Shown piece by piece: positions 2,564 to 57,910 of a stretch of 64,000 nt of DNA. Numbering within the stretch: position 1 is the first letter of the stretch; every line of letters starts with the position of its first letter. Under the pieces are notes generated by a model. The model was not told the DNA's origin and ran no database searches. It saw only the letters and a program-made list of their open reading frames with translations. This DNA comes from Octopus vulgaris. Taxonomy: Eukaryota. The translations under genes were made by a program, and so were the position numbers. The DNA lies in contig OX597814.1 in assembly GCA_951406725.2 (NCBI GenBank), positions 44,516,001 through 44,580,000 of the forward strand, written 5' to 3'.

Positions 2564-4518
2564 ATGGACTTATTTAATATAAACGCATCTATTAAGGATA
2601 TACCCATCCCCCCCAAAGAATGCTTTCCTTAAGCAACCCATTAGTACCACAAATTCCTTTATTAACCGTATCAGATGGCTCGCTTTTTTCGTCGACAGTA
2701 AGGACATTCAACAGCTCACTAATGATCTAACTTCTGAATTTAAAAAAAATATTTAAATCTAAAAACAATCCTCCACCTAACCCATGATTGAAACAGTTTG
2801 AAGATGACCTCTGGTCTATCGTGAGGAATGTAAAATTTCACCGTTCACCCCTAAGGAATAAACATCTGAGATATCTTCACAATATCACCAAGGAAATTCA
2901 TAGCATGGATAGAATAGTTAAAAAAATTAAAGCTTAGTTTATGGTCCAATTCGTCCCAAGTCGTCGACTGGTTTAGTTGTATTGCTAAGTTTATCCAGTT
3001 TCACATTTCTAGTTTCTATTCCTCCATCAACCCAATAGTACTTAATAATGCACTCTGGCTAGCTCACAACAAAGCTGGTCTCATCAGGGAAGAGATTAAT
3101 GTCGTGTTAGCGGCCAGAAAATCTATCATAAAATTTGATAACAAGCTGTGGGTCCGTAAATATACACCCGATGGTTTTGGTGTCACGTTGGGAAGTTTTG
3201 ATTTAGCACAAATATACTTTATAAAATGGTAGATCAGTTCCCAATCATCCATGGATGTTTATATCGTGATGATTGTTTACTCTACCTTCAAAATATTTCT
3301 AACCAAAAAGTACAAAAGGTTAAGAATAGTTTAGTTATGTTTTTCCGAAGAATGGGTTTAGGCATCGTTTTTGACGATGATATAACGAAAGCCAAATTTT
3401 TAGATATACACTTAACTTACCCAATAATACTTACTTCCCATACCACAAACCATCAACCAATCTTAAGTATATTAGCCAATTCAGTAATCATTCTAGGGCA
3501 ATAAGTAAGAATTTAGTTAAAAATATTTCATTCAGATTGTCACAGATATGTGCTAATGTAGACATTGTCAACGACAAGGCTGAATTTTATAACACTGCCT
3601 TACTTAAACCAGGCTATGTAGAGAAATTTACCTACATTAATTCTATTCAATCTTATTCTACATTTAGTAATCGAGACATGAAATCTAGTTGTAACGATAT
3701 GAACGATTTTGATTTTAATTTAGACACCAATACCAAACGGAGTAACGTTTTTTTACAGCGTAAGGGAGATAACCGTTATTTAAGACCCTTTTTTCATTCT
3801 AAAGGTAAATCGAAGTCTTTTAAAGCTAGTTACATTAACAATAAGGCAACTACTAGCAAAACAATTTGGGAGGCAAATTAAATCTTATCTTCCTTTCCAG
3901 ATTCGTGAAGCTAAAATTAAGAACTTTCCAATGAATTCTAGGTATTACACGATTATCAACTCGCACATGATTAGGATTAGTTTTTCTAACACAAAAAACC
4001 TTTCACAAATTATCTCTTCACACAATATTAGTCTGTTAAATAAGAATCCAATCACTGAAAATACTAACATTAATTTAGGTAATAGTAACAAGGTTATTGT
4101 CTCTGAAGTCAATTCCAACAGAATTAAGGTTATGTCTAGTTATTCTAAGACTAAAAATTCTATATACCAGAGCAAAATTACTTCCGGTACCGATGTCTTT
4201 TTTATATAGGTACTCCTTCTCAATTATCTAAAATAATTTCTAATCCTTACTCTACATTTAGGGATAGTAATAAACGCAGCAGAACAGGGCTTAGAAAATT
4301 AACCTGGTATCTAAAAGATCATAATAAACAATTTAATTTAGATTGGTTGATTCTCTCCATTTCATTACCATGCGATAAAAGGCAAAGATTTCTGCCAACT
4401 CTGTAACAGTGAGTTCTTTTATATTCTATTTTCTACGAATCCCCTTGTAAACACGTTTACAGAGCGTGCTTATCGATGTAAACATTGGCAGAAACATACC
4501 TTTAGTTCATATAAGTGA
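2564..4518 (+). pseudogene. PLE reverse transcriptase + GIY-YIG endonuclease, frameshifted
   Basis: Fragments translate to MDLFNINASIKDIPIP, FINRIRWLAFF, LYRDDCL, AKFLDI, NSIYQSKIT, TGLRKLTWYLKD and C-terminal CQLC..E...LVN...E...CKH* (stop 4516-4518). Confidence 0.85.
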
Positions 4519-6049: not shown

Positions 6050-7096
6050 ATTGGTGCTGTGATCGAATGTGACTTTTATTTACTTTTTAAGGCTACAGCC
6101 AGCCATTCAGTTGAGACACAGCACCATCTACAATCATGAACAATGTTGTTATCGTGGAAGGAGATTTTTTTTAAAGTGAGGAAAGGCTGTGCACTAAGTC
6201 AACCCCACTCATTAAGCAACAGCAGCCATAATCCGATGAATCTAAGTCTATGTTATTTGGCTCAGATGGGAAAAGGTACGTTCGTCGAAAAGCAGGTGAA
6301 AAATTGTCGCCTAAATACCTTAAGATTAATGTTAAATTCGGTGGAGGAAGTGTCATGGTTTGGGGTATGATATCTGGAGATGGTGTGGGCCCTTTGCTGC
6401 GATTACATGGAAAGGTAAATGCAGGAGTTTATAAACAACTTGTAAAAGATCATGTCTTGCCTGTGCTGAGAAATTCAACTAAGCGACCACCCATATTCAT
6501 GCAGGACAATGCCCCATGTCACAAGGCTAAAGCGGTCATGAACTTCTTCAAGGCTGAAAAGGTTATTATTACGGATTGGCTTGCTCAAAGCCCAGATCTC
6601 AATCCTATAGAAAACATGTGCTGGAGTCGGAAAGACAACATCCAGGTCTCCTGGAGAACGTTCGAAAGCCAGAAATCCTAAAACAACCGAGCAATTATGG
6701 AATGCCCTTCAGGAAGAATGGAATAAGATCACCCAGAAAGAAATTGAAAATTTAATTTTCTCATGCAGTCGAAGATGTCGAAGTTTGATTGAAGCTAAAG
6801 GGCTTCACACTAAATATGAAATAATTCCAGAATTCTCTGTCCTTTTTGATTATTTTGTTATTTTTTCAACCGTTCTGATCATTTTGGCCACCATGGGTTT
6901 TGCAGTAAATCACTATATCATCCATAATTTTTGTATTATCCACTCAAATTACATCAAAATCTCAGACAATACCAATTAATTTTGTATTTATTGTCTGTGA
7001 AAATATTGTCTGTAGAATATAAAACAACTTTGATAAAAACTTATACCTAATTTTCTGACGAAAACAATACCGTTCTGAACATTTTGGCCGCAACTG
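6050..7096 (+). mobile_element. Tc1-family (DD34E) transposon, 5'-truncated, right terminus retained
   Basis: ORF 6250-6681 has GGGSVMVWG and FMQDNAPCH...SPDLNPIE (34 residues between D and E). Ends ...TTTTGGCCGCAACTG|TA, with an inner copy CCGTTCTGATCATTTTGGCC at ~6869 (IR/DR-like). Confidence 0.9.
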
Positions 7097-18479: not shown

Positions 18480-19560
18480 GGACAAAATGCAATACATTCA
18501 CATGTAATAAAATGAAAAAGCATCAAAATACGTCTCAAGACATTGGAAACATTCGACAAGATAATGGTATGCACATTACTTCATTACAAAACAGTTAATT
18601 TTTTAATATGCCATTTTGTTTTATTTTATGCCAAAGACAGATCTTTTTCTTCATTTTTATTTTTTCATATTATTTGCTGCCTGATATAATTTCTGTCACC
18701 AATTTGTCAATACCTTTCCTGGGAAAAGATTTGATCTTATGAGTTATATTCACTATGTCTTAGCATTTGCTCTTCTAGGAATATGAGACTATATGGAAAG
18801 CCTTTATACAATCTATCCAGATCATACGTAACTTAGCCCATCTTGTTTTATCTGCAAGATGTTGATCTTTTGTACTGCAGCTTCATTTTCGACAAGCTTT
18901 CTGTGTTTCTAGCAGCAGTATCTCTGGTATTGATAGGCTGGTAGATTTCTACAGGGATTATCCTGTTCGATGCTTAACAATTCAACTCAACAGTTATTTT
19001 ACAATGATCTCGTATAACAATTGTTGACAGATGAATAATGCTCAAAGTTAGATTTATGAGGCGCTCTATTCAGAGACGTTGACATTTTCTAAAAGGATAC
19101 AGTTCGTTGTGACAACTTGAATTCTGTCACTTCATTCAGACATTCTTCTAGTAATTCAACAATGCCGAGATCATTTAGCTTGAAGCATATTAACCCTTAA
19201 TCAATTCTGTTGAAATCGTTGGCAAAGTTCAGTTACACTAATCACTGTTTGATAAATAGATCTTATTTAATATGCATTAGTAATATCGCTGCAGTTATGT
19301 GAGGCAATTTGTACTTGAACAGAAACAATACTGCTGACACTTGACAATATATTCCCTGTAACACTATAATCAGTGTGTTTCTGAAATTACTGATATGTGA
19401 AATTAGAATGGTAGGCCAGGAAATTTAATCGTCTGCATTTCGTTGTCTCTTATTCATAAAACATTTGTCATTCTTTATAATATTCGATTTACAGTAAAGC
19501 ATTGTAAGAGTGCTTCAAGCGGCCTGACTATCGTTAGTTAGTAGGTTTTACGAAAACTGT
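18480..19560 (-). mobile_element. Ancient CR1/L2-type LINE RT remnant
   Basis: Minus-strand remnants resembling NYRPISL.SH (~19405), QHGF..RSCLT.L (~19310) and LDFAKAFD (~19220). Confidence 0.55.
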
Positions 19561-20406
19561 TCGGGAATTTTTCATGGCCTTCTTCTTTAATTCAGGTTCA
19601 TTTTAATTATAACAAATATTAAATTTATTCTATACCTAAAGTTACCCATGCAATATAATGATGAGTTATCGTTTTCGACTATTTACATGTGTATTAATTT
19701 AGTACTCAATGCATTTATAGAGGAGTTTACTTACATTCGAAAGTGCACTATACGGGAAAATTTACTTTAACATACACCTTTATTTTGTACTGCATTAAAT
19801 ACGATACTTTAGGGCTTTATGTTTTAAATATCAATTATTTTCTTCTCTTCTACTTTCAGGGGAACTTTTTGCCATATTTTCAATTAATATGAGTGACATT
19901 TTAAGTGTTTTCCTTAGCCAGTATTTTGTCTATGTAATCTATTTAAGATCTTCCTTATTTTCGTGAAAATTATTATACCCAAAGGAAAGATATTTTTGTG
20001 AACATTGGTCTTCATTTTCCTGACGTACATCATGCATACAACTTACAATATTGACAGGAATTAATTCCGATTCACGTGAATTTCGCGGTCCATTTCAGCT
20101 TACAGATCTCTTTCTTAATTGATTTTCTTTACCAGTCACCTAAGCCTACAAAAAAGGGTCATAAATACTAATATTCTTAGTTTGACTAGGCCAAAATAAA
20201 CACAAAGAAATAGAGACACCGTCTCTGTGATCTCATGTTGTGACATCCTTGGGAAAACAGATTTTAGTTACTAAAATAGAATACATTCTGAAACTAATTT
20301 TGTTTGTACGTTAACACATCAATCAATTGGAAGATATTCTAAGAAATTGTGATATGGTTCGTGTAATCCACCAGAAGACGTAATTCTAATATTACTGAGT
20401 TGTTGA

Positions 20407-20600
20407 AGGTGGCTAGCGGGCAGAATCAATAGCACGCCGGATAAAATGCTTAGCGGCATTTTGTCCGTCTTTACATTCTGAGTTTAAACTACACTGAGGT
20501 CGACTTTGTCTTTCACCCATTCTGAGGTTGAAAGGCAAAGCACTTGGATCGATGTAATCAAGTTACCCAATTCTTGAGCTAAAATTCGAAAACAATATTA
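20407..20600 (+). mobile_element. SINE family B
   Basis: GCAGAATCAATAGCACGCCGGATAAAATGCTTAGCGG...GAGGTCGACTTTG, homologous to 42148. Confidence 0.75.
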
Positions 20601-21120
20601 CTGTGTTTGGGGATTTCTTATCTAAAATTAGATATATAAGATAATTTGTGAGGCGTTCAGCTCTATGTTAGTTCCACAACGATGTAAAGGTACTCTCCTT
20701 TTAAATATGCGTGTTGACTGTGGTTGCAGGCCTATTCAGGTTGTACAAATTAAGTCTTCAGCTGAACGAAGGCAGAAATATAACAAAGTGAATAAAAATG
20801 TCGAATGGAAAAATATATTTGTACATGTATTGAAGAATGTTCTCCCATCTGTGTATACATATCGAGTATGCGTATATATATGTGTGTGTGCCTGTGTGTA
20901 TCTGTGCTTGTATGTGTGAGCGTCAGTGTATGTGTGCGTGCATATATGTATATATAAATAGATAGGTAGATAAATAGAAATCCATATATATTCGCAAATA
21001 TATAAATGTACTTCGATTAGAGATTATGCTAACCTCAGGAAGAGATAGTTTCATCCAAGGAAATACTGGTTCAATACCTAGTATTTTGGAGGAATTAATT
21101 TCCTTAAAATGATAGGTATA

Positions 21121-21426
21121 TATAGATATAAGAATAATCGCTGTCGTTGGTCAGCTCCATGAGGCCACCGCCTTAAGATAGCTATTGATACACGATCTGT
21201 ATCCATTATAACCTTCGAACAAGGGCGACACCTGCGGGGTCTGACTGCGCTACATTGACAAGGGGCAATACCCCGAAACGCGTCTGTAGCTGTCGGACTG
21301 GCAGTGTGAAGCGGCTGACCTCCCTTGTTCGAAGGTTATAATGGATACAGATCGCTTATCAATAGCTATCTTAAGGCGGTGGCCTCATGGAGCTGACCAA
21401 CGACAGCGATTATTCTTATATCTATA
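21121..21426. mobile_element. 306 bp foldback element: 105 bp inverted arms around an HHR-containing loop
   Basis: Arms 21121-21225 and 21322-21426 differ at only 2 adjacent positions; termini TATAGATATA. Confidence 0.9.
21249..21290 (+). ncRNA. Type I hammerhead ribozyme, U3:A8 core variant
   Basis: GCTACA TTGACAA GGGG caata CCCC GAAA CGCG TC TGTAGC. Helices I and II pair perfectly; predicted cleavage after C21284. Confidence 0.85.
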
Positions 21427-23269
21427 AGAATGCCATATTAATATGGCGATAACAATTAATTTCCAGTAAACGCTGTCGTAATCTCTTTTATAGAGACTTA
21501 GTAATTTTAATATTTCTATTATATATATATAGTTTATATTCATTTAGAAGAAAAATAAGAAAATGGAGATTGGGAAGTTAATAATTGTTTATTATTAACA
21601 GCATATTAAATCATCATGTTTCGATTAATACTCAATAAATATTAAGTAAATATTAAATTTATATGACCTGAGCGTGATATACTCAGAAGGAAAAATACTC
21701 TAGGATGTTTTATATATGATTATGTAATATCGAAAGTGTTCGAAATTAGTCCATTCTAATAATGCTCACACTTGTTTTAGATACTCGATATATCACGTAT
21801 GAATGTCTGGTTCATCTAAACAAGAATACGGATGGATATACATCTTTACAAAATTAATGTTGTGCTAAGGGTTGTTATTTGTTTTCTCTTGTTTTGAGAA
21901 AGCTGCGGTGGTGTCTGGTCTATGCGAAAACATGTGACTGTTGAAAATAAGTTTGTGTCACTAAGACGTGTTGACTTACCCACAAATGTCTTTATACACA
22001 TTCGTATATACGGGTGTACGTGTATGTGTATACGTGTACGTATGTGTGTGGGGGTGAGGTGGGGGTGCACGCGCTTCTTCACGTGCATATGTCTATATGC
22101 TTCTATGCATGTGTGTGTAACTTTTCCAAGAGAGAGAGCAAAAACAGAACATAAATAAATAGGCATTTCTTAGTATTTATCTAAAGTGTGTTAAAATTTT
22201 ATATCCAGGAATTTATTTTTTGTCCTAACACTGAAAGTAATATATGCCCTCAACTAACGGGATCTGTTATACATTACATTTTCCTTAATTTAATCACTTT
22301 TGAATTAATTTTAGGTAATCAGAACTTATTTCAATGACTCCAATTTAGAAATACCATATCGCACAGCTGATAAAGTAAAAAAAAAAGGGGGAGGGTAGCA
22401 TTTATTTACGTTTTTTTTATATATTGTAATTACTAATATTTCCTAAATGGCAGTCAAGTAACCTAATAAGACACAAATACACCGAGTCTAAATTTTAACC
22501 GTAATGTATTTCCTTTTGTATGTGTCTTCCGCATGTGTCAGTGTATGAGTTTTTTTTACATTATGTATATGCGTCTAAAATGGCAGTAATATCTCAATAT
22601 GGATATTGTTCAAAACACATGTATATGAAACGTATATGCAAGTAAGCACGCACATGAATTTATAATATGTCACTGAACTATCCACATCGTGTACATTTAC
22701 TCAGGTTCCTTGACTCTGTCGATGCGTAGGCAGGCTAGAATTTATAAATCATGGGTTTTCCTTGCAGACTTAACACTTCAATATTTTTTATTCTACTACA
22801 AAAGCCAAAATGCCTCCTTGGAGGGTGCTGTTCCCTTAGCGTTACATTCATTGTCACGCTGATTCTGCCCCCAAGGAGAATCAATCCATTTTGCTATATC
22901 TCGCTGCTTTAACTGACTTCCATTTGCATATTTGCATATAAGCAGAGCTCTTACACTAATGGCGTGCCGGGCTGTTGAATTCTCACCTTTTTACTCTGAA
23001 CGTATGACTGGCTGTGAACTGAAGCTTAGTAAAATCTCATAAAATACACACATTATTCCACTTTGAGATTTTAATTCCTTTATGCATTTCTGGTCATGCT
23101 TTGCATTATTTGCCGTGTGTTTCGTTTATTTTACAATTTATTTTGTGCTTATTTTACTTTAGTCGTTTTATTTTTATTTTTTCTCATTAATTACTATTTT
23201 GCATTTAATTAACAATTGCAGAATTTCAATGAGTAATGCGTCATCTCTTAAACATTATTGCTCATACGC

Positions 23270-23307
<38 letters not shown>

Positions 23308-26071
23308 GCATACATATCATACATATACATATAGGAATATATACATATATACATACATTAGAATTCCTACAATACTTTAGCAAGTATTGTGGAAATTTAA
23401 TGATTTCTGCATTGTGCAAGATAAAATCAGAATATTGCCTGAATGGAATTTTCTTCAGTTTTCATATTCAGCAAATATCTGATTTTTGTTTTCTTTTCTT
23501 AATTGATGTGTGGTTCATTTTGTGATATTGTATTGAGTTTACTGTTTCAAATCGTCCGCAAATTGATTTTGAGAAATATTATGCCCTTCTGATTAACTAA
23601 CTGCCTGGTTTGATTGTTTCAGATAATGTATTTTAAGGATTTGCATCTTGGGATATTATAGAGCATATCGAAAGTTATAGTGTTACTTTCATAATCTGTC
23701 GTCTTATCAAAATTTGAGTTAAAGGATGAAGATTAGACGGCTTATATTTTTAAGGAAGTTTATAAATATATTTCATGTAAAATGACGTTTATTAGTGGCT
23801 TGACACATTTTGTTTAAATGGTATCGATAGTGTGTTATCATATAAAAGATACTACTAGTATTGGTACTGTCATGATTTCTGCTATCATGACGGATACTAA
23901 TAACCGCTGGTACCTAAATCGTTTGTGATCTCCTGCGACATCTGATGAAGTATCTTGCAGTGCGACTCTAAGTACAATAATGTACTAAACTTGTTAGTTT
24001 ATAAATAATTATTAGACGATAAAATTTAAGCTACCAACAATGTAAAGATGTAGAAATGAAGTGTAATAGGTCAGACCGAAAACATTAGCCCGATCTGTTG
24101 AGGACTAATAAATTTAAGTTTCTTATCCAGTAAATTATCATAATAACTGCGATGACAGAAACATAATGGGGAAACTTAAAATGTAAGTGGGAAATCCCAA
24201 TAATGAGAATTGCATCTGAAAAAAAAATGGAGTGTGATGTTAGGTTTTAATTATATAGAAATATTACTGCCTTGTTAAATCAAGAAATTCAGAAAATGTT
24301 CGCATTATTTTTTCACAATAAATTACTACATTTATTATTTTAGAAATACGTTATTGATGGTTACATGTACTACATAAAAAGGCAGGGATGTCAACCAGTC
24401 AAATATTCGAAAGAGTTAACTTTATATACAAGTGACTTCTAATATCAATAAATGATGCACATTTTAAGAAACTTTATAATCAGTCGCAAATTTTAAATAG
24501 GTTCAGTTTTGGTAACACATGAGCCTTAAAAAAGCAACATGAGCTTTGAGAATCTGTGATAATACGTAAAATATGAAAATACTAAAATATTAGTTCATTG
24601 TTTGTATCTATTTAACTCCGGGTTAAATGATAAGGCGTTTTACACATGCATTTTTAGAAAAATTTGTAATAAAAAAATTTGCTATATTAAATATTAAATT
24701 CAAAGATAATTTAATGGTTCTGCTATCCCAATAGCAAATTCCTGAATAAGCAGACTTGCAACCAAAGTTGTTCTAGACGTGTCCATACCATATTCTATAC
24801 TAAGTGTGGCATCCAGAACCACGTTATTCAAAATAATCTTTTCGTTTTATACAGTAGAGTTGTATTTAAGTGAGATATTTTAACGAGTATTTCTCGCAGT
24901 TTGAATGGCTCTATATACATAGCTCTATTCGGTTGTCATAAAATTTGAATCAATTTTTCCTACCAGCATGAGAGACTCTTTTTATATATTTGAAGGTAGA
25001 ATTATACTGACTGCGACAACATTATCAGTCTTGATATTAAACTTAAGATAGTGCAATATGGAATTCCAGAAACGAACAGTAGTCAAGAAAACACGAGGAT
25101 GATTCACCAAAAATACGTTAAAGTAATATAAAAATATTATTTTTAGATAGCAAACTGTTTGCGGGAGTATTTAATTCAATAAGCCAGGTTGTTCGAGATT
25201 ACTTCAGTCCGTCACTCATCAACTATAATACCAATGATGAAATGAGGTCATTTTATTGGATTATACCTCCTTTCATACAAAAGGTCGCTTTATGCTTTTG
25301 GAAGAAATTCGTCTTTGTTAGTATTATTAAAGGAGTATAGACCATTTCCAACATTCTTAATAACAGAAGCAAATATGTGATTTAAGAATTCTTTGAATGT
25401 GTGAAAACAACAAATTAATCTAATTATACATTCAAGAGCATTATTAGATTTTAAGATAACTTATAATTTGCATCGTCATACTGTCATTTGCAAAGATAAC
25501 ATAATATCATTCTAATATCCGATCTTGCTAGAATACCTGAACCAAATATGTTAATGAGTTGTAGAAACAAATATTTTGATACGGTAAAAAGTAAGGTATA
25601 TTGTTAAATTTAAATTCAAGTAGAACATTTCTGCTGTTTCTTGACATATAAATTAATCATATTATATAAACAGATCTTTTCTGAAGTATATTCTTTCTTC
25701 TAGAGTATGCTATCAGCCACTTTTCACACCTAAGCCTTCCCCTAGATAGTTTTAAAAGATTTTCTATGAAAACCTACTTAGCCACTTAGAAACTTAATCC
25801 TCCATAATGGTCTGTTTCGAAGTATGTTTATACAAATATAAATGTTTATGAGTGATATTCAGTTGTTAACGAGTTCATTATTATTTTTATAGTGTAAAAT
25901 ATGAAAGAAGGTGATAGTGACTAGTAACAAGGAGCTTCTCGATCAAGTCATTGACAACGCAGGAGATGGCTTCCAGAGAGTACCAAAAGATATGCTACGC
26001 ATTATGATAATTTGATGAGTACTGAACATGTCATGCTGCATTTTGAAATTATTGTGATCTGCGTAAAATTT

Positions 26072-31439: not shown

Positions 31440-32103
31440 TGGCTGCCTTCACACATGCTCGGCCGATGGTCGGAAATAAGGTAAATGATGACTCGTCGGA
31501 GAAAATAATATTCTTTCACTGCTGTAGGGACCAATTCTGTAGGGTTTTACTCCACGCGAAATGCTTTGCATCGTTTGTTTTTGAAAGTAGTGGTTTTATG
31601 ATTGCAGCCCACCGCCTGAAATCTGGCTTTGTGCAGCTCCCGGCGAACAGTTTTTATGGAAACTGGATTCTCGAGGTGGTCGTTAAACTCTGCAGTAATT
31701 TTGGGAGCTGTACTTTTGTGATCTTTTCTAATGATTCGCAAAAGAGTCCGATGGTCCCTATCTGAATGTTTTGGTTTTTTTCGGAGTTTTGTTTCGACGA
31801 GGAGGTTTTTTCCCTCTATCTCAAAGGCTGTCATTTCTTTTGGGAAAGTACTTCTTGAAACACCAAACGAGCACCAACAATTTGACCTCTTTGAAAGTCT
31901 GATAGATCTGTCATTTTAATGAATTTTAATTACCTTTTTTCTGATGATATCTGAAAAGAAACAGTAATTTTAGCAAAACATGGTAAGCAACACTAAAAAT
32001 AAAGAAAAAAACCTAAAATAAACAAGCCTTTGACGGTTTTATAGATATTTCAAAATTATAATGCTATGATGCTAGGTGTTTCCATTATTTTGAGCAAACG
32101 CTG
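31440..32103 (-). mobile_element. Tc1-family transposon 5' fragment
   Basis: HTH SDRDHRTLLRIIRK...TAPKI...VS..TVRRELH and IIFSDES; terminus TA|CAGCGTTTGCTCAAAATAATGGAAAC. Confidence 0.85.
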
Positions 32104-32111
32104 TATATATA

Positions 32112-32642
32112 CAGGGTGTCCAAAAAAATGTATACACACCTTAAATAATTGTAAATTTGGGGTTTATTATAATTCGAATAATTTTCAACATGTAAAAGAA
32201 TTTACAAATATCATTCTATTGTCTTGTTATCGCATGTTCTCAAACTGATGTCCGTTCTGCTCCAGACACTGCTGACAACGCGAAGCGATGGAATGGCACA
32301 CATCATGGAACAATTCCCTTGGGATATTCGTACATTCATGTTCAATGGTTGCCCTCAATTGAACGACTGTTGCAGGTTTCTGTGCATAGACTTTGTCCTT
32401 TAGGTATCCCCATAAAAAGAAGTCTAGTGGGGTGAGGTATGGTGAACGTGGAGGGTATTCGACAAAACCTCTCCGTCCAATCCACCTGTTTGGCAAGATC
32501 CCATCAAGAAAGGATCTAACATCGCGATGGTAGTGTGGAGGTGCCCCATCGTGCTGGAAATAAAACTCTTCCTGTTCAAAGTCCTGTCTAATGCTTGGCA
32601 TGACAGACTGTTGCAGCAAGTGTATACATTTTTTGGGACACC

Positions 32643-32645
<3 letters not shown>
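32112..32645 (-). mobile_element. Internally deleted DD41D (rosa/Visitor-type) Tc1/mariner element with both TIRs
   Basis: 26 bp TIRs CAGGGTGTCC(A/C)AAAAAATGTATACAC with TA flanks; FQHDGAPPH...[21 protein letters not shown] has 41 residues between the 2nd and 3rd D. Confidence 0.9.
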
Positions 32646-32711
<66 letters not shown>

Positions 32712-32724
32712 TATACATATATAC

Positions 32725-32757
<33 letters not shown>

Positions 32758-35246
32758 TACATACATACATACATACATACATACATACATACATACATAC
32801 ATACATACAGAGATCTTTAGCGACATTCATGGTTTAGAAATCAAAATCATTTGTAATCATATTAATTGTATGAGTAACTGCTTCGAAACTAATCCAAAAG
32901 ATGGACCGATCGTGTGCAAAGCCTGTAGTGAGGAGATATTTGGTACTTGAGCTAATGAGTGCACATTTTCATAAGGTCTCTCCCTGACAAAAGATGTCAA
33001 CCAAATATCCGTGAATTCACATCTTGATATTTGGAGAAAGAAAAGAATACTACGGATAATGGTGTTGTAGAATACTTTTAAAAAAGTCAAGATCACCATA
33101 GTTAGAATGCAGTATATCTACTTGATTAGGACCGCTCTGGATTTAAACTGCAACGATTACAACAACTACTACTACTGGTAGAAAGTATATTTCATGAAAC
33201 TATTTCTCTTCCATCACCGCTTCAGGATAGGTTTAAGTGAGGTTAACCAGCAATAAAAGGTTTTGTTCCAAGAAAACAGGAAAATGTCAAAATCATTGGA
33301 TTTGTTGGATTCATACTGACATATAAAAACATCGAAATATATTAAAGGACGCATAGTAGCGTCACATCCCATAATCATTTGTCCTCTGGAATCCTACAAC
33401 TTTTCGCTCTTGTAAAAAATATATATAAAACGGAGAATATATTCGCTAGCACGACAAAGCTACATTTTGGCCCGGCTTGCGTGTTTTAGTATCGCGGAGA
33501 TAATTTGTCTTACTGGTGAGTTTAAAATGGATTTCATACTTATTCCCCTTCCTCATAAATCTTTCGCGTGATAAAAACCATTTTACTCTCTAATGCCATC
33601 TTTCAACCAATGATGTTCCGCTGCAAGTAGTATACGATCATTAAAAGTGAAAATGTTTTGTGACCTCCATGATCCGTTGAAATTACTATTTGCTTGAACT
33701 CTGCACCTAGAAATAAGTTATTAGACGCAACAACAAACTAAGTTCTTGAGCACAAATCTAATCAAATATGATACACTACGTCCATAATTATACAAAACCC
33801 AGGCAGGCAAGAAACTAACAAGAGCTCATAATACCTTAAAAGCAGCCTAAAAATGTTTATATTTCATATAATCAATATCAGTTTTAATATTATGGTCAGT
33901 ATTGCTATGAAAGACAGTAAGTGCGCGAATATTAATGTTGGGAGTCACGATATTTCTGTATTATCTCCCAGTACTAAACATTTTCTCAAATTGCTTTCTT
34001 TAAGTATTGCTGCTGCTATGGCGAACGATTTCTGTCACTTCTATATTGCACATATTTATTTACGTGCACAGGTATGTACACACACGTATACACAAACGTG
34101 TGTGTACATACCTGTGAGTGTCTGCCAGTATGTATAAGTATATACATAATGTTTACCAGTATGTATATGTATATACATAATGCTTTCAGGTATATGTGCG
34201 TGGGGTGCGTGTACATGTGTTTATGCGTGTACGCATGCATATGAATGTATATGTCAGTGTATGTATAAAAGGCATTTAGAGAGATTTATTGATGTATAAA
34301 CCCCATATACGTACATAGGAAGATATCCCAGTAGATATAATATATTAGAAAAATCTTATGCTTTAGCCAACCAGAGACTCGGGAAACTTAGCAGAATTAT
34401 TTTGCCTGTAATGTTTATCTTTCACACGAGGCCTTTATTAGCTACAGCCAGCTTTTCTTCAGCACGATGATGGGATAAAAATACTTTTCTCAAATCTCAA
34501 TTCTCATTTCTCAATCATTTTTCATCTTCTGTCTCACTTATACACTCCCCAGGCTCCCACGTATACATTCTATAAATTACATGCCAACAAACTTACACGA
34601 AAACTCTCACACATACACACGCATATATATTCATGTGCGTGCGTGTACGTATGTACATGTGTGCGTGCGGTATTCCAAGTGTGTAAAGCGTTTTTAATAA
34701 ATTTCCAGCACCACTTTTTTCTACCTTGCGGATTTTTACCTCCATTAATATATTATTACTTCATGTATTATTTCACATATATTAACTATTATTTTATATG
34801 CAATGTATTATTGAACTATACAAATACCATCCAATAATATGGCAACGTTTTCTGTGTGAAGTATTTATTTTCAAGGTTTGGGTTTCGTAACTTCTACATC
34901 ACTAGTGTTTAATGAGGTGAATTCTGACCGCAGGTACTTGAATATTTTGTATGGCATTTTTTATTTTATTTTTTGTTTTAATGCAATATGCCTCAATAAA
35001 GATCTACTTTCTATACACACACGCATGTACACATACACAATATAGACAAAAAATACAAACACATACATATATGCAGTCACGTACACACACAGGCATATAT
35101 TTTGAGAGTGCTATATATGACAAAGGGGCAATGTAGACAGAGAGAACAAGCAGAGAAGTAATAGAGAGAGCACAGAAACTGAAAATATATAACAGATAAT
35201 AGAGCGGGAGAAAAGAGCAAGGGTGAGAAATGTAACAGGAAAGCTA

Positions 35247-43706: not shown

Positions 43707-43889
43707 TTAAATAATAAGGGTAGAAATTGAAATATTAATAAATTAAAACCACTGGCTTAGCTTATTTAAAAAATCCGAAGATTAAACATTTTGAATATAT
43801 AGACATATATATATATATATATATATTTGTAAAAAATGAAGTTCGAAAATGCTGCTGTATTATACAATTTTTAATTTTTATATATACAT

Positions 43890-43928
43890 TATAACATGTT
43901 TCAGTTCCTGAAATGAACCTTATCAAAA
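43890..43928 (-). ncRNA. Hammerhead-like motif, U3:A8 core, degenerate helix I
   Basis: Minus strand reads TTGATAA GGTTC atttcag GAACT GAAA CATG TT, at the expected position in the PLE 3' end. Confidence 0.55.
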
Positions 43929-44011
43929 AAAGTTATATATAAAAAGAGACAGCTCATGCCGTCAAACACAAGAAATTCATTTATAATACACAACGGAGTC
44001 AGACATCTTAG

Positions 44012-44081
44012 AGTTCATGTATAGTTGATATATAGTTCATGTATAGTTGATATATAGTTCATGTATAGTTGATATATAGTT
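44012..44081. repeat. 22 bp tandem repeat x3
   Basis: AGTTCATGTATAGTTGATATAT x3 inside the PLE 3' region. Confidence 0.9.
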
Positions 44082-44329
44082 TGAAGTATATGTTCAAAGT
44101 GTTCGATGCAGTGGCCCACGGTGGCGATACGTATTCAATACAAAAAACAGATCAAAGTGGTGGAAAGCGGTCAATACAGAAGATTGATGTTTCCGAAAGA
44201 GCGAGGAATTCATTTTTACCTTAAGCAATTGTGATGACCCATGGTGGAAGTTCGCTGGGTGGTTCTAGTGATTTTTTGTGAAATGCTTGGTTTTATAATG
44301 CCTGTTAGGTGGTCAATCTAGCGTAGCGT

Positions 44330-44661
44330 GACGTCATCAATGTTTTGACCAATCGTTTCGTTAGGTGGCTTTAATCAAGTGGAACGGGACGTCATCATTA
44401 TTTTGACCAATCGCTGCATTATAACTCCCTCTTGTTTGTTTCCTGTCTTGACCAGTCGCTTCGTTAGTCAAGCATAGCGGGATGTCATCCAGATTCTGCC
44501 CAATCACGACTTATAGCTACATTAGATCTGCCCCCTGTCTGTACTTGTTAGGTGACTATTCAAGCAGAAAAGGACGTCATCAATATTCTGACTAATGACT
44601 GTCCCCTGTTTGTATCCTGTCCATTCTAGCAGAGCTAGACGTCGTCAACTTGTTGACCAAT
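44330..44661 (+). promoter_or_regulatory. Five CRE-like (GACGTCA)-N12-CCAAT modules
   Basis: Modules start at 44330, 44388, 44481, 44573 and 44638, each with a 12 nt spacer. Confidence 0.55.
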
Positions 44662-44830
44662 CAGAATCGGGTCTGACCCTTAGCTGTATCGTATGTATCA
44701 GGGTCAGATTTGCACGAAAGAATTTTTTTCCCTTTTTTACTAAGGCATATTTCCGTCAGAGTGAGTGTCTGTTTGAAGTAGCGGCCGTGGTGAAATTTGG
44801 TTCTCCTTTTCGGAGGACTTATCTTTTGTT

Positions 44831-45361
44831 TTAGTATTCCTGGCCCAGGGTGTTTAAACTTGGTCTAAATTTTTTTATGAAATATAGTTCTTTATTTTGG
44901 CGTTGTGTGAAGGTTGCGTTGTCACTGAATTTATAGAGCGGGTTAGTTGTAAATTTCGGATTTACATTTCCAGCACATCTATCTATGTGTCCGCTGACCG
45001 GTATTTTGCGGTAATCAGGGTTTCTAATTTGTGATTTATGCACCGCCATCCTGTTACGTAAGCTATTTTTTGTATGGCCTATATACTGCCTATTGCAGCC
45101 TGCGCATGTTATGACGTAAATTAAGTTTTCTGATGCGCAGGTGAAGTTTGTTCTAATGGTGAACTGGTGGCCTTGTCCCAGTATAAATTCTGATCCTTCT
45201 TTCAAGATGACACAGATTCCGCAGTTGGGCCTTCCACATTTTCTAACTGCTGGTTTTGTGGTTGATGTTGAGTGCAGTGTAGCTTGGGTTAAAATCCTTT
45301 TCAAGGATTTTGGTTGCCGTTTACTTTTAATGATGGTGTGTGTTTCGAGGATCCGGTTCAT
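44831..45361 (-). CDS. GIY-YIG endonuclease domain of the PLE (open fragment)
   Basis: LIY...YIG motif with conserved R, H, E, N and upstream Cys residues. Confidence 0.85.
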   Translation of the reverse strand: MNRILETHTIIKSKRQPKSLKRILTQATLHSTSTTKPAVRKCGRPNCGICVILKEGSEFILGQGHQFTIRTNFTCASENLIYVITCAGCNRQYIGHTKNSLRNRMAVHKSQIRNPDYRKIPVSGHIDRCAGNVNPKFTTNPLYKFSDNATFTQRQNKELYFIKKFRPSLNTLGQEY

Positions 45362-45704
45362 CTTTGGGTCTCCCTTTAGTAGGGCTGTGCTTTGTAGTAT
45401 GGTGTTGAAGGCCTCATTGTTGAGTGGGTTGTGTGTAGAGATGTAGGGAAGGGTTTTTAATTGTTCTTTCTTTTTTTGGTTTTGTTTGTCTCAGGTCTTC
45501 TATACTTAATTTAAGTACCCGTTGGATTGCACTGTCTATTAGGGGCTGTGGATAGTTTCTATTTGTGAGTGTGGTTCTAAGTTCCTGGAGACGTGTGTGT
45601 CGGGTGTTTGTGTCTGATATTATGGTGCAAATCCTTCTAGCTAAACAAAAAGGGACATTCATTCTAATGTGTCGTGGGTGGCATGAATCAAAGGGTAGGT
45701 ACTG

Positions 45705-45742
<38 letters not shown>

Positions 45743-45759
45743 AAGTTCCATTATTGGTA

Positions 45760-46700
45760 GCATCACCAAAAATGCACTTCATCCAGTGAGAGATAAATAC
45801 CATTCAATATGCACAATTTCACAAGAGATACGAATAATTTCGTGATTTAAGATACTACATTGAATTAGCAGATTTATATAAAATGCGATGTATATCCAAA
45901 CATTCTTTGAGATTCAGTTTAAAAAAATTAGGATGCTGCTCTATGAGAAAATATGATAACAAAAGAGACAAGAAGAAAAAACGCGAAAAATATTGATGCA
46001 AAAAGTGGAAGGAGAAGAAAGAAAAGAAAAGTGAAAAAAAACACGATCTTCCTCTTTTTTTACTGTAGAAACCATAGTTAATGTATGTCCTGCAGAATAA
46101 TATAACGGAAATGATGACAGGGTCTTTGAAATAGCTACTCAAAACGAAATGGGTGGTGTCTTGCAGTTCGACAAAAGGAATTTGTCCATGTTCTTGAATA
46201 TGCTAGTGAATCGGATCTGGAATTAATAAGTGTAGAGGAATTCTTGGATCTAAAAGAGTGAGAGATCTTTCAGCTATATATAACTTGTCTTTGAACCATT
46301 TATATATGGTATATACTTCTCTCACGATTCTCCACTCGAATGTATTTGTTGTGCAAATAGTCTTCAGATCCCATACCTGACCAGCCAACTGAGGACCTTA
46401 TTTTTATTAATGTATCGGAAAGAAGACTGCTGGCTTGCATAACGGCTTTTAAAATTACCTTCGCATGAAGATTTAACTTTACTTCTCAATTATGCTGCCT
46501 GGAGCACTTCTCTAACTTAGGCGTCATAAACAACTGAGTTTATCAAACACGCTTGATCAAATTGGCAAGCCTGTGGGTCTCGACAGTTACAACTAGGAGT
46601 GGGATCTCGGTGTGACTTGCAGGTGATAATACCCTACATAATGGGGAAGCAGATGTACAAAAGTTTTATCGATCGTCTATTAAAACTCTTCCTGTAATTG
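45760..46700 (-). mobile_element. Decayed I/Jockey-type LINE remnant
   Basis: Minus-strand remnants resembling PGPD.I...M.K (~46200) and KDP.S.R.I.L (~46110). Confidence 0.4.
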
Positions 46701-52400: not shown

Positions 52401-52494
52401 CGGCAGGGAATCAGAGCTAACACAAGTTGTAAGTCGCCTGAGTTGGATGGTCTCCCTTACTAGATTGACATTTGTCGTCGGTAGTCTGGTCGGG

Positions 52495-53450
52495 TAGCGC
52501 AAATGTTTGCAATTCCGTACATGTATATCCCACACAACCCCAAACTTATGCGGTACATCATAGAGAGGGCTGGAACTAAAGCTGGCTTCGGTGAGGATCT
52601 GATTAATTTGGACCAATCCAAAACTTTCGACAGAGTCGACCATCACTACTCGAAAACCGTCCTGAAGGCTGTCAGTTTTGGACCTGTTTTCAGAGGCTGG
52701 ATCAGTGCAATACACAGCGACTCCTGCTCAATGGTGAAAGTAAATGGCCACATATCGCCTCTTCTGTACGTGGTGGCTCTCGAGACACCGCTACAGAAGT
52801 TGGAACAGTTGAGGTGCTTCCCCTTTGAACTGGGACACGAGAAGGCCGTGTCGGCGTACGCGGATGAAGACACAGTCATGGTGTCTAATGCCTCCGAAAT
52901 GGAGACGGCAGGCACGATTTTAAAGGTATATGAGTCGGTTGCAGGGTCCAAAATTAACGCCGACAAGTCGGCGGACTTGTCAACCGAGTTCGTAGTAAAG
53001 ATTACCCTGCCGCCTTCCTTTATTCGGGCAGGTAAGGCAGTTTTCCTTTCCTGGTGGCAGTGGTGAAAGACGTTGTCTGGTGGACGAAGTTGAAATGCAT
53101 GGGGACACAGACATTTCTCATTGGTAGAGCATTCATCTACTTTTTCAAGTCATACTTGAAGATGAAAGAGAAGTGCTGTCCTTGAGCCAATTTATTGAAA
53201 GGTAAGTGAATCGCTAAAATGGCAAGAATGAATGATATGACTCTACGTAGAGAGTTGTGAAGCAGAGAACAGGAATTGGAGAGAGCACTTGCCCTTGGTG
53301 TGAAGTGAGATGTTGGATGGTGGGGTTCCCCGTCTATCCCTAACGGTCCTCTTTGTATCAGAAAGGCAGCATATGTGTCATCTTTTTTGTCCGACTTTCT
53401 TTCTTTGTACTGTTGTATATTGTGTATTCTACATTTTATTTTAGTGTACA
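52495..53450 (+). mobile_element. Tx1/L1-clade LINE RT fragment
   Basis: ORF 52503-53066: LDQSKTFDRVDH, GWI, VKVNG, SPLLY..ALE, AYADE, YE...GSKIN.DKS. Possibly related upstream remnants at ~51540-51960. Confidence 0.8.
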
Positions 53451-56400: not shown

Positions 56401-57910
56401 TAGCGTCTAGTCGTTAGATGTTTCAAGGTATTTTGCCAGTTCCTTATGGTGATTTAATAGGAGATTTCAAATTGGATCAAGCGTCGACCTCCTTGAGCAC
56501 TGGATAGATTACGTCTGCCTTTGAGTGGTACATCTTCTTGCAAGTCAGCAGCTTACGGGTTTTCCTGTCAATCTTCCTTATGTATCTCATATTCCAGTTC
56601 AACACATTGAAATTGTAAATAACAACAGGAACTGCAAATGATGTTATAGCTAACACTTTGTTACGTGCGTTTAACTGGGATTTTAAGACTGCTCGAACTC
56701 TCCTGTAACACTCCTTCTTGATCTTCTTTTTCATATTTGCATGTTGAATGCCAGAGCTCTCATTTATTCCGAGGTATTTGTAAGTTTGTTCTAGCTGGAG
56801 ATCTTTTATGACTGTGTCAACATCCAGCACCACTGAATGAGAGGTCTTCAGGTTTCCTATCTGGAAAGTGGCTTTGGAACATTTAAGACAAATTCCATCC
56901 CAATGGCATCACTGAATGCTTTCACAGTACTTAGTAGTCCTTCAAGCTCATTATATTCTTTGCCATAGAGTTTTTAAGTCAGCCATATAAAATAGATGAC
57001 TTATTTTCTTCACGCCAATTTTATAGCCATACCATTTTCTGTTAAGTTACCTTGTAAGGGGTATTAGAGCTATGCAGAAAGTTAAGAGTGAAAGTGAGCC
57101 ACATTGTAAAATTCTGTAGTTGATATTAATATTTTTGTGGTCAGCAATCCATTACAGTGGTATAATTGGAGATTTGTATTCCACATTGACATGTGCTTCA
57201 GAAATCACAGGAGAAATTTTAAAGATATCCAGCGTATCCAAGATCCGTGAATGCGATATGCTGTCGAAGGCCTTTTTAGAATCAATCCATGCAGAAGTGA
57301 GATTTCTGAGTTTGTTATGGCAGTTCTCAAGGATCATGTGCTTGATTAAGAGTTGGTCTTTGCATCCATATGAGTCTCGTCGGCATCCTTTCTGTTCAGT
57401 GGAGAAAATATTGTTCTGTTCCATAAATTTTTATGTTTTCTCCACGAGGTTGGATGTTAAAATTTTATACGTGGTAGGTAGACATGTTATGGGACGATAG
57501 TTTTTTGGGGAAATTTGGTTTCATTATTCCTCGGGTGTTTTTGCAGAATCTCTCATAATTTCCTTGATTAACTGGACTAGCTTTTTGTCAACGCACGGGA
57601 GCGAGATGAGCCAGAGATCTGGCATCCGATCATTGCAGATTTCCACTTATGAGCATTTGTGAGTGTCACTCTTAGGTCTGCTATTCTGATGTCTTCTCAT
57701 GTTTGTTCTGGTGTCTAATCCAGTCAGCATTTTTATTGTAATTCTTTTCATTGCACCACATATTTTTCCAGATGTTTTCAACTTCATCCATGACAGGGGG
57801 TAGTCTTCAACGGCTATTTTTTTCTCCTTCCCTATTTCTCAGTAGACTGTTTTCCCATTGGATGCAAACAGCTTATTTTGTTTGTAAAATTTGTTTCTCT
57901 TCTCAAATTT
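56400..57910 (-). mobile_element. R4/Dong-clade reverse transcriptase fragment
   Basis: EQKGCRR.SYGCKDQLLI, WID.KKAFDS..H, SHLFYM.D, YKYLGI, LNARNK..AI...AVP, IDRKTRKLLT. Confidence 0.85.

Follow-up and report, generated by a model that had tools for sequence, protein, structure and literature searches.

Two described systems come closest to the locus analysed here. In the excerpts available of PMC7229834, metazoan non-LTR retrozymes are 150-450-bp, low-GC tandem repeats with a type I hammerhead ribozyme (HHR) and long target duplications, the repeats of the mussel Mytilus measuring 350-390 bp, and Penelope-like elements (PLEs) are proposed as their mobilisers. Regarding EN+ PLEs, the accessible parts of PMC8557442 describe copies truncated at the 5' end, arranged as partial tandems and biased towards microsatellites, with an inverted 5' copy and, on one side, a tail of 30-40 bp; the formation of the inverted repeat and of the tail is described as open in the same parts and in those of PMC11167929. 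The latter source, in the portions retrieved, reports in vitro work in which purified PLE protein acts on both target strands, cutting and extending them, and reverse transcription has two start sites on the RNA, one at either limit of the genomic tail; the protein is predicted to be a dimer, and ribozyme cleavage is not needed for insertion.

The Octopus vulgaris family to which our locus belongs combines features of both systems. Like the metazoan non-LTR retrozymes of the PMC7229834 excerpts, it has a type I HHR in a tandem unit of low GC that lacks an ORF, duplicates more than 4 bp of its target and co-exists with autonomous PLEs; in contrast to them, its copies are mostly dispersed, and 50 of the 80 sampled are head-to-head inversions with PLE-type tails, whereas these excerpts mention no 'inverted' arrangement for metazoan retrozymes. 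The U3-A8 ribozyme core is a further difference. With EN+ PLEs (Penelope/Poseidon, Neptune), as far as the excerpted sources describe them, it shares truncation, tandems, the inverted copy, an optional tail, (TA)n, two start sites of reverse transcription and a ribozyme upstream of the 3' ends, but it contains no RT/EN ORF and its ribozyme is canonical and not of the minimal type (min-HHR) of PLEs. The tail is about 62 nt long here, versus 30-40 nt for PLEs (PMC8557442 and PMC11167929, in part) and about 29-45 nt in an abundant Neptune family of the same genome; no homology was found to the pLTRs of the three Neptune families checked in this genome. The Cercyon PLEs of Schistosoma mansoni, in the accessible text of PMC4209133, resemble the family in a U3-A8 compensatory core change and a palindromic helix III that hints at action as a dimer; there it is the min-HHR of a PLE, whereas here a canonical ribozyme sits in a non-coding tandem, and an older related family, D, keeps C3-G8.

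In open-access text we found no description of this family, of its end-pairing rule (see below) or of a cephalopod retrozyme, and judged against that text the 364-bp family is a previously undescribed non-LTR retrozyme family with PLE-type insertion. It is highly probable that the palindrome of our locus is a truncated insertion, 402 bp in all, of such a non-LTR retrozyme, likely mirrored at insertion by double priming with a borrowed Penelope-type RT/GIY-YIG protein.

The repeat unit and its insertion in the window

The repeat unit is a non-coding 364-bp tandem of 43% GC, within the low-GC range (<45-50%) of non-LTR retrozymes, and is predicted to fold into a long stem with the ribozyme at its tip. 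Tandems of this period stand at many loci, among them L028, where two ribozymes lie 364 bp apart (L026 being one and the same insertion as L028); the monomer was cut out between the two L028 cut sites, m1 being the first base after the ribozyme cut. The genome (2.8 Gb, 227 contigs) was searched with the 306 bp first annotated as the element, which gave 124 matches from the best 40 of 1566 candidates scored, and with a ribozyme 25-mer, which gave 243 exact matches (117 + 126) while its reversed control gave 0. From 100 of these 243 matches, a sample conditional on an intact 25-mer, the merging of matches within one insertion yielded 80 loci, the window copy among them: 50 two-arm head-to-head inversions, 26 single-arm copies and 4 complex loci that were set aside. 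At least two of the single-arm copies have a tiny inverted stub in their flank.

Copies are mostly dispersed 1-3.6-mers, their arms consisting of pure repeated monomer over up to 1330 bp and up to 3.6 units. The 126 arms split into subfamilies A (102 arms, 1.6% from the majority sequence) and B (24 arms, 1.1%), and in 50/50 inversions the two arms are of one subfamily. By its sequence characters, this family is a non-LTR retrozyme. Two relatives were encountered: family C (L109-L128), of 363 bp and 87% identity, with 60 exact matches of its own 25-mer and the same two ends, and family D (L207-L231), of about 357 bp and about 65% identity, which is older and has a canonical C3-G8 core. The contigs of four runs guessed to be RNA contain pieces of the family and of relatives, and are uninformative on strand, ends, level, editing and source locus. 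Two sampled copies, L091 and L092, lie 16 kb apart on C5 and have a 400-bp flank and the 5' breakpoint in common, a local duplication; L092 terminates exactly at the ribozyme cut site.

The window, that is the whole stretch of 64,000 nucleotides analysed, at 44516001-44580000 on contig C1, holds the copy L033, composed of a sense arm of 299 bp and an inverted arm of 105 bp (402 bp in total), with the following parts:

21121..21522, + strand: the complete 402-bp insertion, made up of an inverted and a sense arm of the 364-bp retrozyme unit (BLAST of L033 against the multimerised monomer)
21121..21225, - strand: inverted, 5'-truncated arm, monomer m38 to m142 (BLAST against the monomer)
21224..21522, + strand: sense arm, which starts at m304, spans the ribozyme and stops at the long 3' end, m238 (BLAST against the monomer)
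21249..21290, + strand: type I hammerhead motif (sequence and folds), sole hammerhead-like match in the window under the strict pattern
21427..21522, + strand: portion of the element absent from the extent first annotated (BLAST; histogram of the 3' ends of 126 arms)
21117..21125, + strand: tentative left copy of the target-site duplication, a TA-rich word of 9 nt that shares 5 nt with the arm end (sequence, low complexity)
21524..21532, + strand: tentative right copy of this duplication, with the identical 9-nt word, beyond the long end joined by (TA)n (sequence, low complexity)

The complementary stretches, 21121-21225 and 21322-21426, are 105 nt long, 98% complementary and spaced by 96 nt, and the sense and inverted arms overlap by 2 nt, m38 and m304 being joined head to head at 21224-21225. 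The 105-bp arms with two mismatches of the initial annotation are thus real, but its extent of 306 bp was too short: the element runs 96 bases further right, to 21522, and the added portion includes the usual short end (about 21460, m176) and a tail of roughly 62 nt (21461-21522). The young age assigned to it is borne out by the 1.4% difference between arms within one insertion and by the 1.6% distance of subfamily A copies from their majority sequence. The loop has a predicted fold of -36.7 kcal/mol (z = -2.3). Regarding the inverted arm, it ends at m142, 34 nt before the usual short end near m176, and the 9-nt TA-rich word found at both ends, which reaches 5 nt into the left arm, tentatively suggests microhomology priming at m142. 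The window locus is one truncated insertion, ordinary and dead on arrival. The roles considered earlier for its transcript (long dsRNA hairpin, siRNA source, ADAR substrate) are possible but putative, being conceivable for any transcribed 105-bp hairpin.

The hammerhead ribozyme

The hammerhead motif at 21249-21290 is present as it was first written out, with a predicted cut after C21284. It comprises a 6-bp helix I (21249-21254/21285-21290), a 4-bp helix II (21262-21265/21271-21274), the core UUGACAA (21255-21261), which is the U3-A8 variant and not CUGANGA, the GAAA at 21275-21278 and a palindromic helix III, ACGCGU, at 21278-21283. Helices of 6 and 4 bp with a short palindromic helix III are those of a canonical type I ribozyme; the min-HHR of PLEs, according to the available part of PMC4209133, has a helix II of 7-8 bp, a helix I of 4-5 bp and an extra unpaired base after A9, whereas helix II is 4 bp and helix I 6 bp here and the extra base is absent.

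The description of this ribozyme as perfectly paired is right for helices I and II, whose pairing probability reaches 0.89-1.0 in the full window transcript, and wrong for helix III, whose two pairs have a probability of 0.0. The latter forms only in a two-copy fold, as a 6-bp intermolecular helix (-45.7 versus 2 x -20.2 kcal/mol). Since helix III is predicted in the dimer and not in the monomer, a self-cleaving loop in the solo window copy is doubtful, and a solo ribozyme in a hairpin loop would, on these folds, need a trans partner. U3-A8 covariation in Schistosoma PLEs and a low, dimer-dependent activity have been reported (PMC4209133, in part), and in Xenopus 1/9 predicted retrozyme dimers was cleaved in vitro (bioRxiv 10.64898/2026.07.22.740005, in part). 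The ribozyme likely serves the family, whose tandem transcripts would be cut as a dimer, and not the solo window copy.

An Rfam scan of 19000-24000 gave 22 matches at E<=5, microsatellite-driven miRNA matches with no hammerhead among them, and the hammerhead call therefore rests on motif, fold and covariation between families. The covariation was read from the motifs, since family D was misregistered in a MAFFT alignment of 16 ribozymes. Among families A-D, both strands of helix I vary and helix III is represented by four different self-complementary words, while the core is U3-A8 in A, B and C and C3-G8 in D (7 motif matches in 25 loci for the latter). At the level of the family, selection on the ribozyme is indicated by these sequences.

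Two 3' ends and the making of the inverted arm

The 3' ends of the 126 arms cluster at m172-179 and m235-241 (about m176 and m238), about 62 nt apart. An inversion generally uses one of each: 43/50 combine a short (m168-185) and a long end (m232-245), the remainder being 2 short-short, 0 long-long and 5 with one atypical end, so that one-of-each pairing amounts to 43/45 (p = 6e-11). The window copy, with its m142 end, is among the 7 exceptions. In family C, as read from the table, one-of-each ends occur in 6/7 two-arm inversions. Target duplications measure 12-14 bp in 15/15 inversions whose best repeat is not simple sequence, the other 35/50 sitting in simple repeats where the duplication is unreadable; 6.7% of mismatched-flank controls reach 9 bp. 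(TA)n stands at an end of 38/50 inversions and 22/26 single-arm copies, as raw counts without genome background. An inverted 5'-truncated copy, two 3' ends bounding an optional tail, AT-rich or microsatellite targets, here (TA)n, and long target duplications together constitute the insertion signature of EN+ PLEs. The PLE-type insertion proposed in the initial annotation therefore stands as regards the inverted 5' copy, the tail, the (TA)n and the long duplications, but the element is neither a pLTR stump nor the bearer of a min-HHR.

One insertion appears to be copied from one sequence variant, as its parts agree at variant positions: the two arms are concordant at two polymorphic sites in 66/67 comparisons (about 52% by chance), and the tandem units of one insertion in 23/24 and 28/29. 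Arm divergence is 1.4% within an insertion versus 2.5% between insertions, and variants private to one insertion occur in both arms in 4 cases versus 36 in one arm. The shared variants could alternatively reflect gene conversion or one active source locus at a time. Differences between tandem units that come back in several insertions were sought as the mark of a common genomic multimer master, an idea that was not retained, no difference among the 163 in 48 arms being seen in more than 2 insertions; this fits a circular template but also a very young homogeneous tandem. Arms that run across as many as three cut sites likewise fit a circle without establishing it, a multimer being the other candidate template.

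We propose that retrozyme RNA, as a multimer or a circle, would be bound by a PLE protein, probably a dimer, which would cut both target strands 12-14 nt apart. Of the two target 3' ends, one would then prime cDNA synthesis at m238 and the second at m176; the two cDNAs would end prematurely, often within strong RNA stems, and microhomology of 0-20 nt would link them head to head. For the window copy, the second primer is likely to have taken the alternative AT-rich site m142, its cDNA halting at m38, where stalling is commonest, and the first cDNA would have halted at m304, which would leave one ribozyme in the unpaired centre.

The 5' breakpoints have a hot spot at m38-46 (the 21225 side in the window), within the 3' strand of the long stem around the ribozyme, with 20/126 arms versus 3.1 expected under a uniform null and for a bin chosen post hoc; a second one, at m183-220 and also binned post hoc, coincides with strong stems and holds 25/126 arms. 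At the ribozyme cut site, 10/126 arms have their 5' end versus 4.5 expected (p = 0.015, post hoc bin); run-off there was rejected as a proof of cleavage in vivo, this excess being too weak and post hoc.

In L1 twin priming, the second target strand primes cDNA internally and a 5' inversion arises at insertion, with a variable second site and two pieces without overlap. Here, by contrast, neither site varies, and the overlap between the arms yields a palindrome. That the one-of-each rule is the genomic record of a PLE dimer, of a 12-14-nt stagger and of two RTs priming at fixed sites on one circular RNA is a tentative proposal, somewhat more likely to fail than to hold. The window copy, which breaks the rule, speaks against dimer double priming, and in vitro the two strands showed no difference in start site, so that a strict one-of-each rule is not predicted (PMC11167929, in its accessible part). 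The tail, longer than in PLEs, and the lack of pLTR homology in three Neptune-type families likewise count against a borrowed PLE protein.

The inverted arm might instead be produced by self-priming (snap-back) of one cDNA or antisense template and the tail by endonuclease resolution, self-priming having been proposed for rotifer Penelope elements (PMC3846280 and PMC8557442, in excerpts). The variants shared between arms agree with such an origin, as does the location of some junctions in the unit's own inverted repeat: L002 and L003 have there an identical junction with a 22-nt overlap, and their swapped ends point to independent recurrence at this repeat. Moreover, the short-end arm is contained within the long-end arm in 19/43 inversions, which stay compatible with self-priming. 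In 24/43, however, the short-end arm reaches further 5' than its partner, while the tail of the long-end arm is absent from the other; neither arm therefore copies the other, which argues against self-priming as the general route, and most junctions show only 0-7 nt of overlap or gap, away from mirror positions. We consider a snap-back origin unlikely.

Penelope-like elements of the genome and the mobile unit

Suitable PLE machinery is present in the genome, including two Neptune families with U3-A8 cores. One of them, reached with a window protein as PLE probe, is young and very abundant (20084 first-look candidates): a 5'-truncated copy lies in the window at 43828-45803 (- strand), full copies have a 781-aa frame with RVT_1 and GIY-YIG matches and a cysteine-rich linker, and the 3' end shows a hammerhead-like U3-A8 core with a poor helix I and two alternative ends. 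The other (L119/L183-L197, L205, L206) has a clean U3-A8 hammerhead 3' of the ORF, with a 2-bp helix II and a palindromic helix III, a pattern found in 12/17 loci. U3-A8 seems common among the PLEs of this genome. The window also holds, at 3381-4209 (+ strand), two overlapping open frames that look like a decayed C-terminal region of a PLE of the Penelope/Poseidon type, fragments at 6232-6979 (+), 31547-31915 (-) and 32227-32826 (-) resembling Tc1/mariner transposases, and others at 52485-53066 (+) and 56477-56908 (-) resembling LINE reverse transcriptases.

An alternative is that a longer autonomous PLE left the copies as 5'-truncated pLTR stumps, its partial-tandem pLTRs mimicking the 364-bp unit. 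Every insertion hallmark is of PLE type, vertebrate retrozymes have been reported as pLTR-derived (bioRxiv 10.64898/2026.07.22.740005, in the part available), and our sample covers 100 of the 243 exact matches. Yet the arms, up to 1330 bp, consist wholly of repeated monomers, and upstream the RT plus GIY-YIG ORF of an autonomous PLE was looked for and not found, arms continuing into monomer or host DNA. The upstream flanks of the 26 single-arm copies have no common element save the 400-bp duplicated flank of L091/L092 and one 59-bp match. The 364-nt unit is too short for an RT, and with a 781-aa Neptune protein as probe, tblastn gave matches at 5/128 loci, none inside an element. At one of these, L110, the match abuts a copy; a retrozyme-RT chimera was considered there and rejected, as it is a single case in an older family with an unrelated pLTR and can be a nested insertion. 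Finally, no homology to the unit was found in the pLTRs of the three Neptune-type families examined, one of which has intact 781-aa frames and another of which is older. A pLTR stump is accordingly improbable.

The inversions measure 257-1524 bp (median 702, n = 50) and show 45 distinct junction pairs in 10-nt bins, the window junction being common to 0/49 others; arm/loop breakpoints thus vary between copies, the ends are asymmetric by a tail, and the fixed symmetric terminal inverted repeats and whole-unit mobility of a MITE or foldback element were not found. A self-propagating foldback element consisting of the 306-bp palindrome is hardly credible and largely refuted by these junctions, even though about 15 copies match the 306-mer end to end and a single ribozyme stands on one arm in 29/50 inversions, for even the best 306-mer matches, selected for the geometry of the window copy, differ in their junctions and run past both ends of the query.

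The mobilisation of retrozymes by PLEs has so far been proposed mainly from co-occurrence and pLTR similarity, and here the full insertion signature of PLEs is found on a non-coding retrozyme. The abundance, youth and small size of the copies made it possible to count how the two 3' ends pair (43/45), and this count favours double priming over snap-back as the mechanism. The family also offers a natural switch from C3-G8 to U3-A8 within one element lineage. What most deserves to be followed is the rule, valid across the family, that a short end goes with a long one, together with the fixed target stagger. If true, the model of a dimer acting on a circle would explain the inverted repeats and the tails of PLEs together, and would tie retrozyme circles directly to the PLE machinery, with the 364-nt RNA as a minimal substrate.
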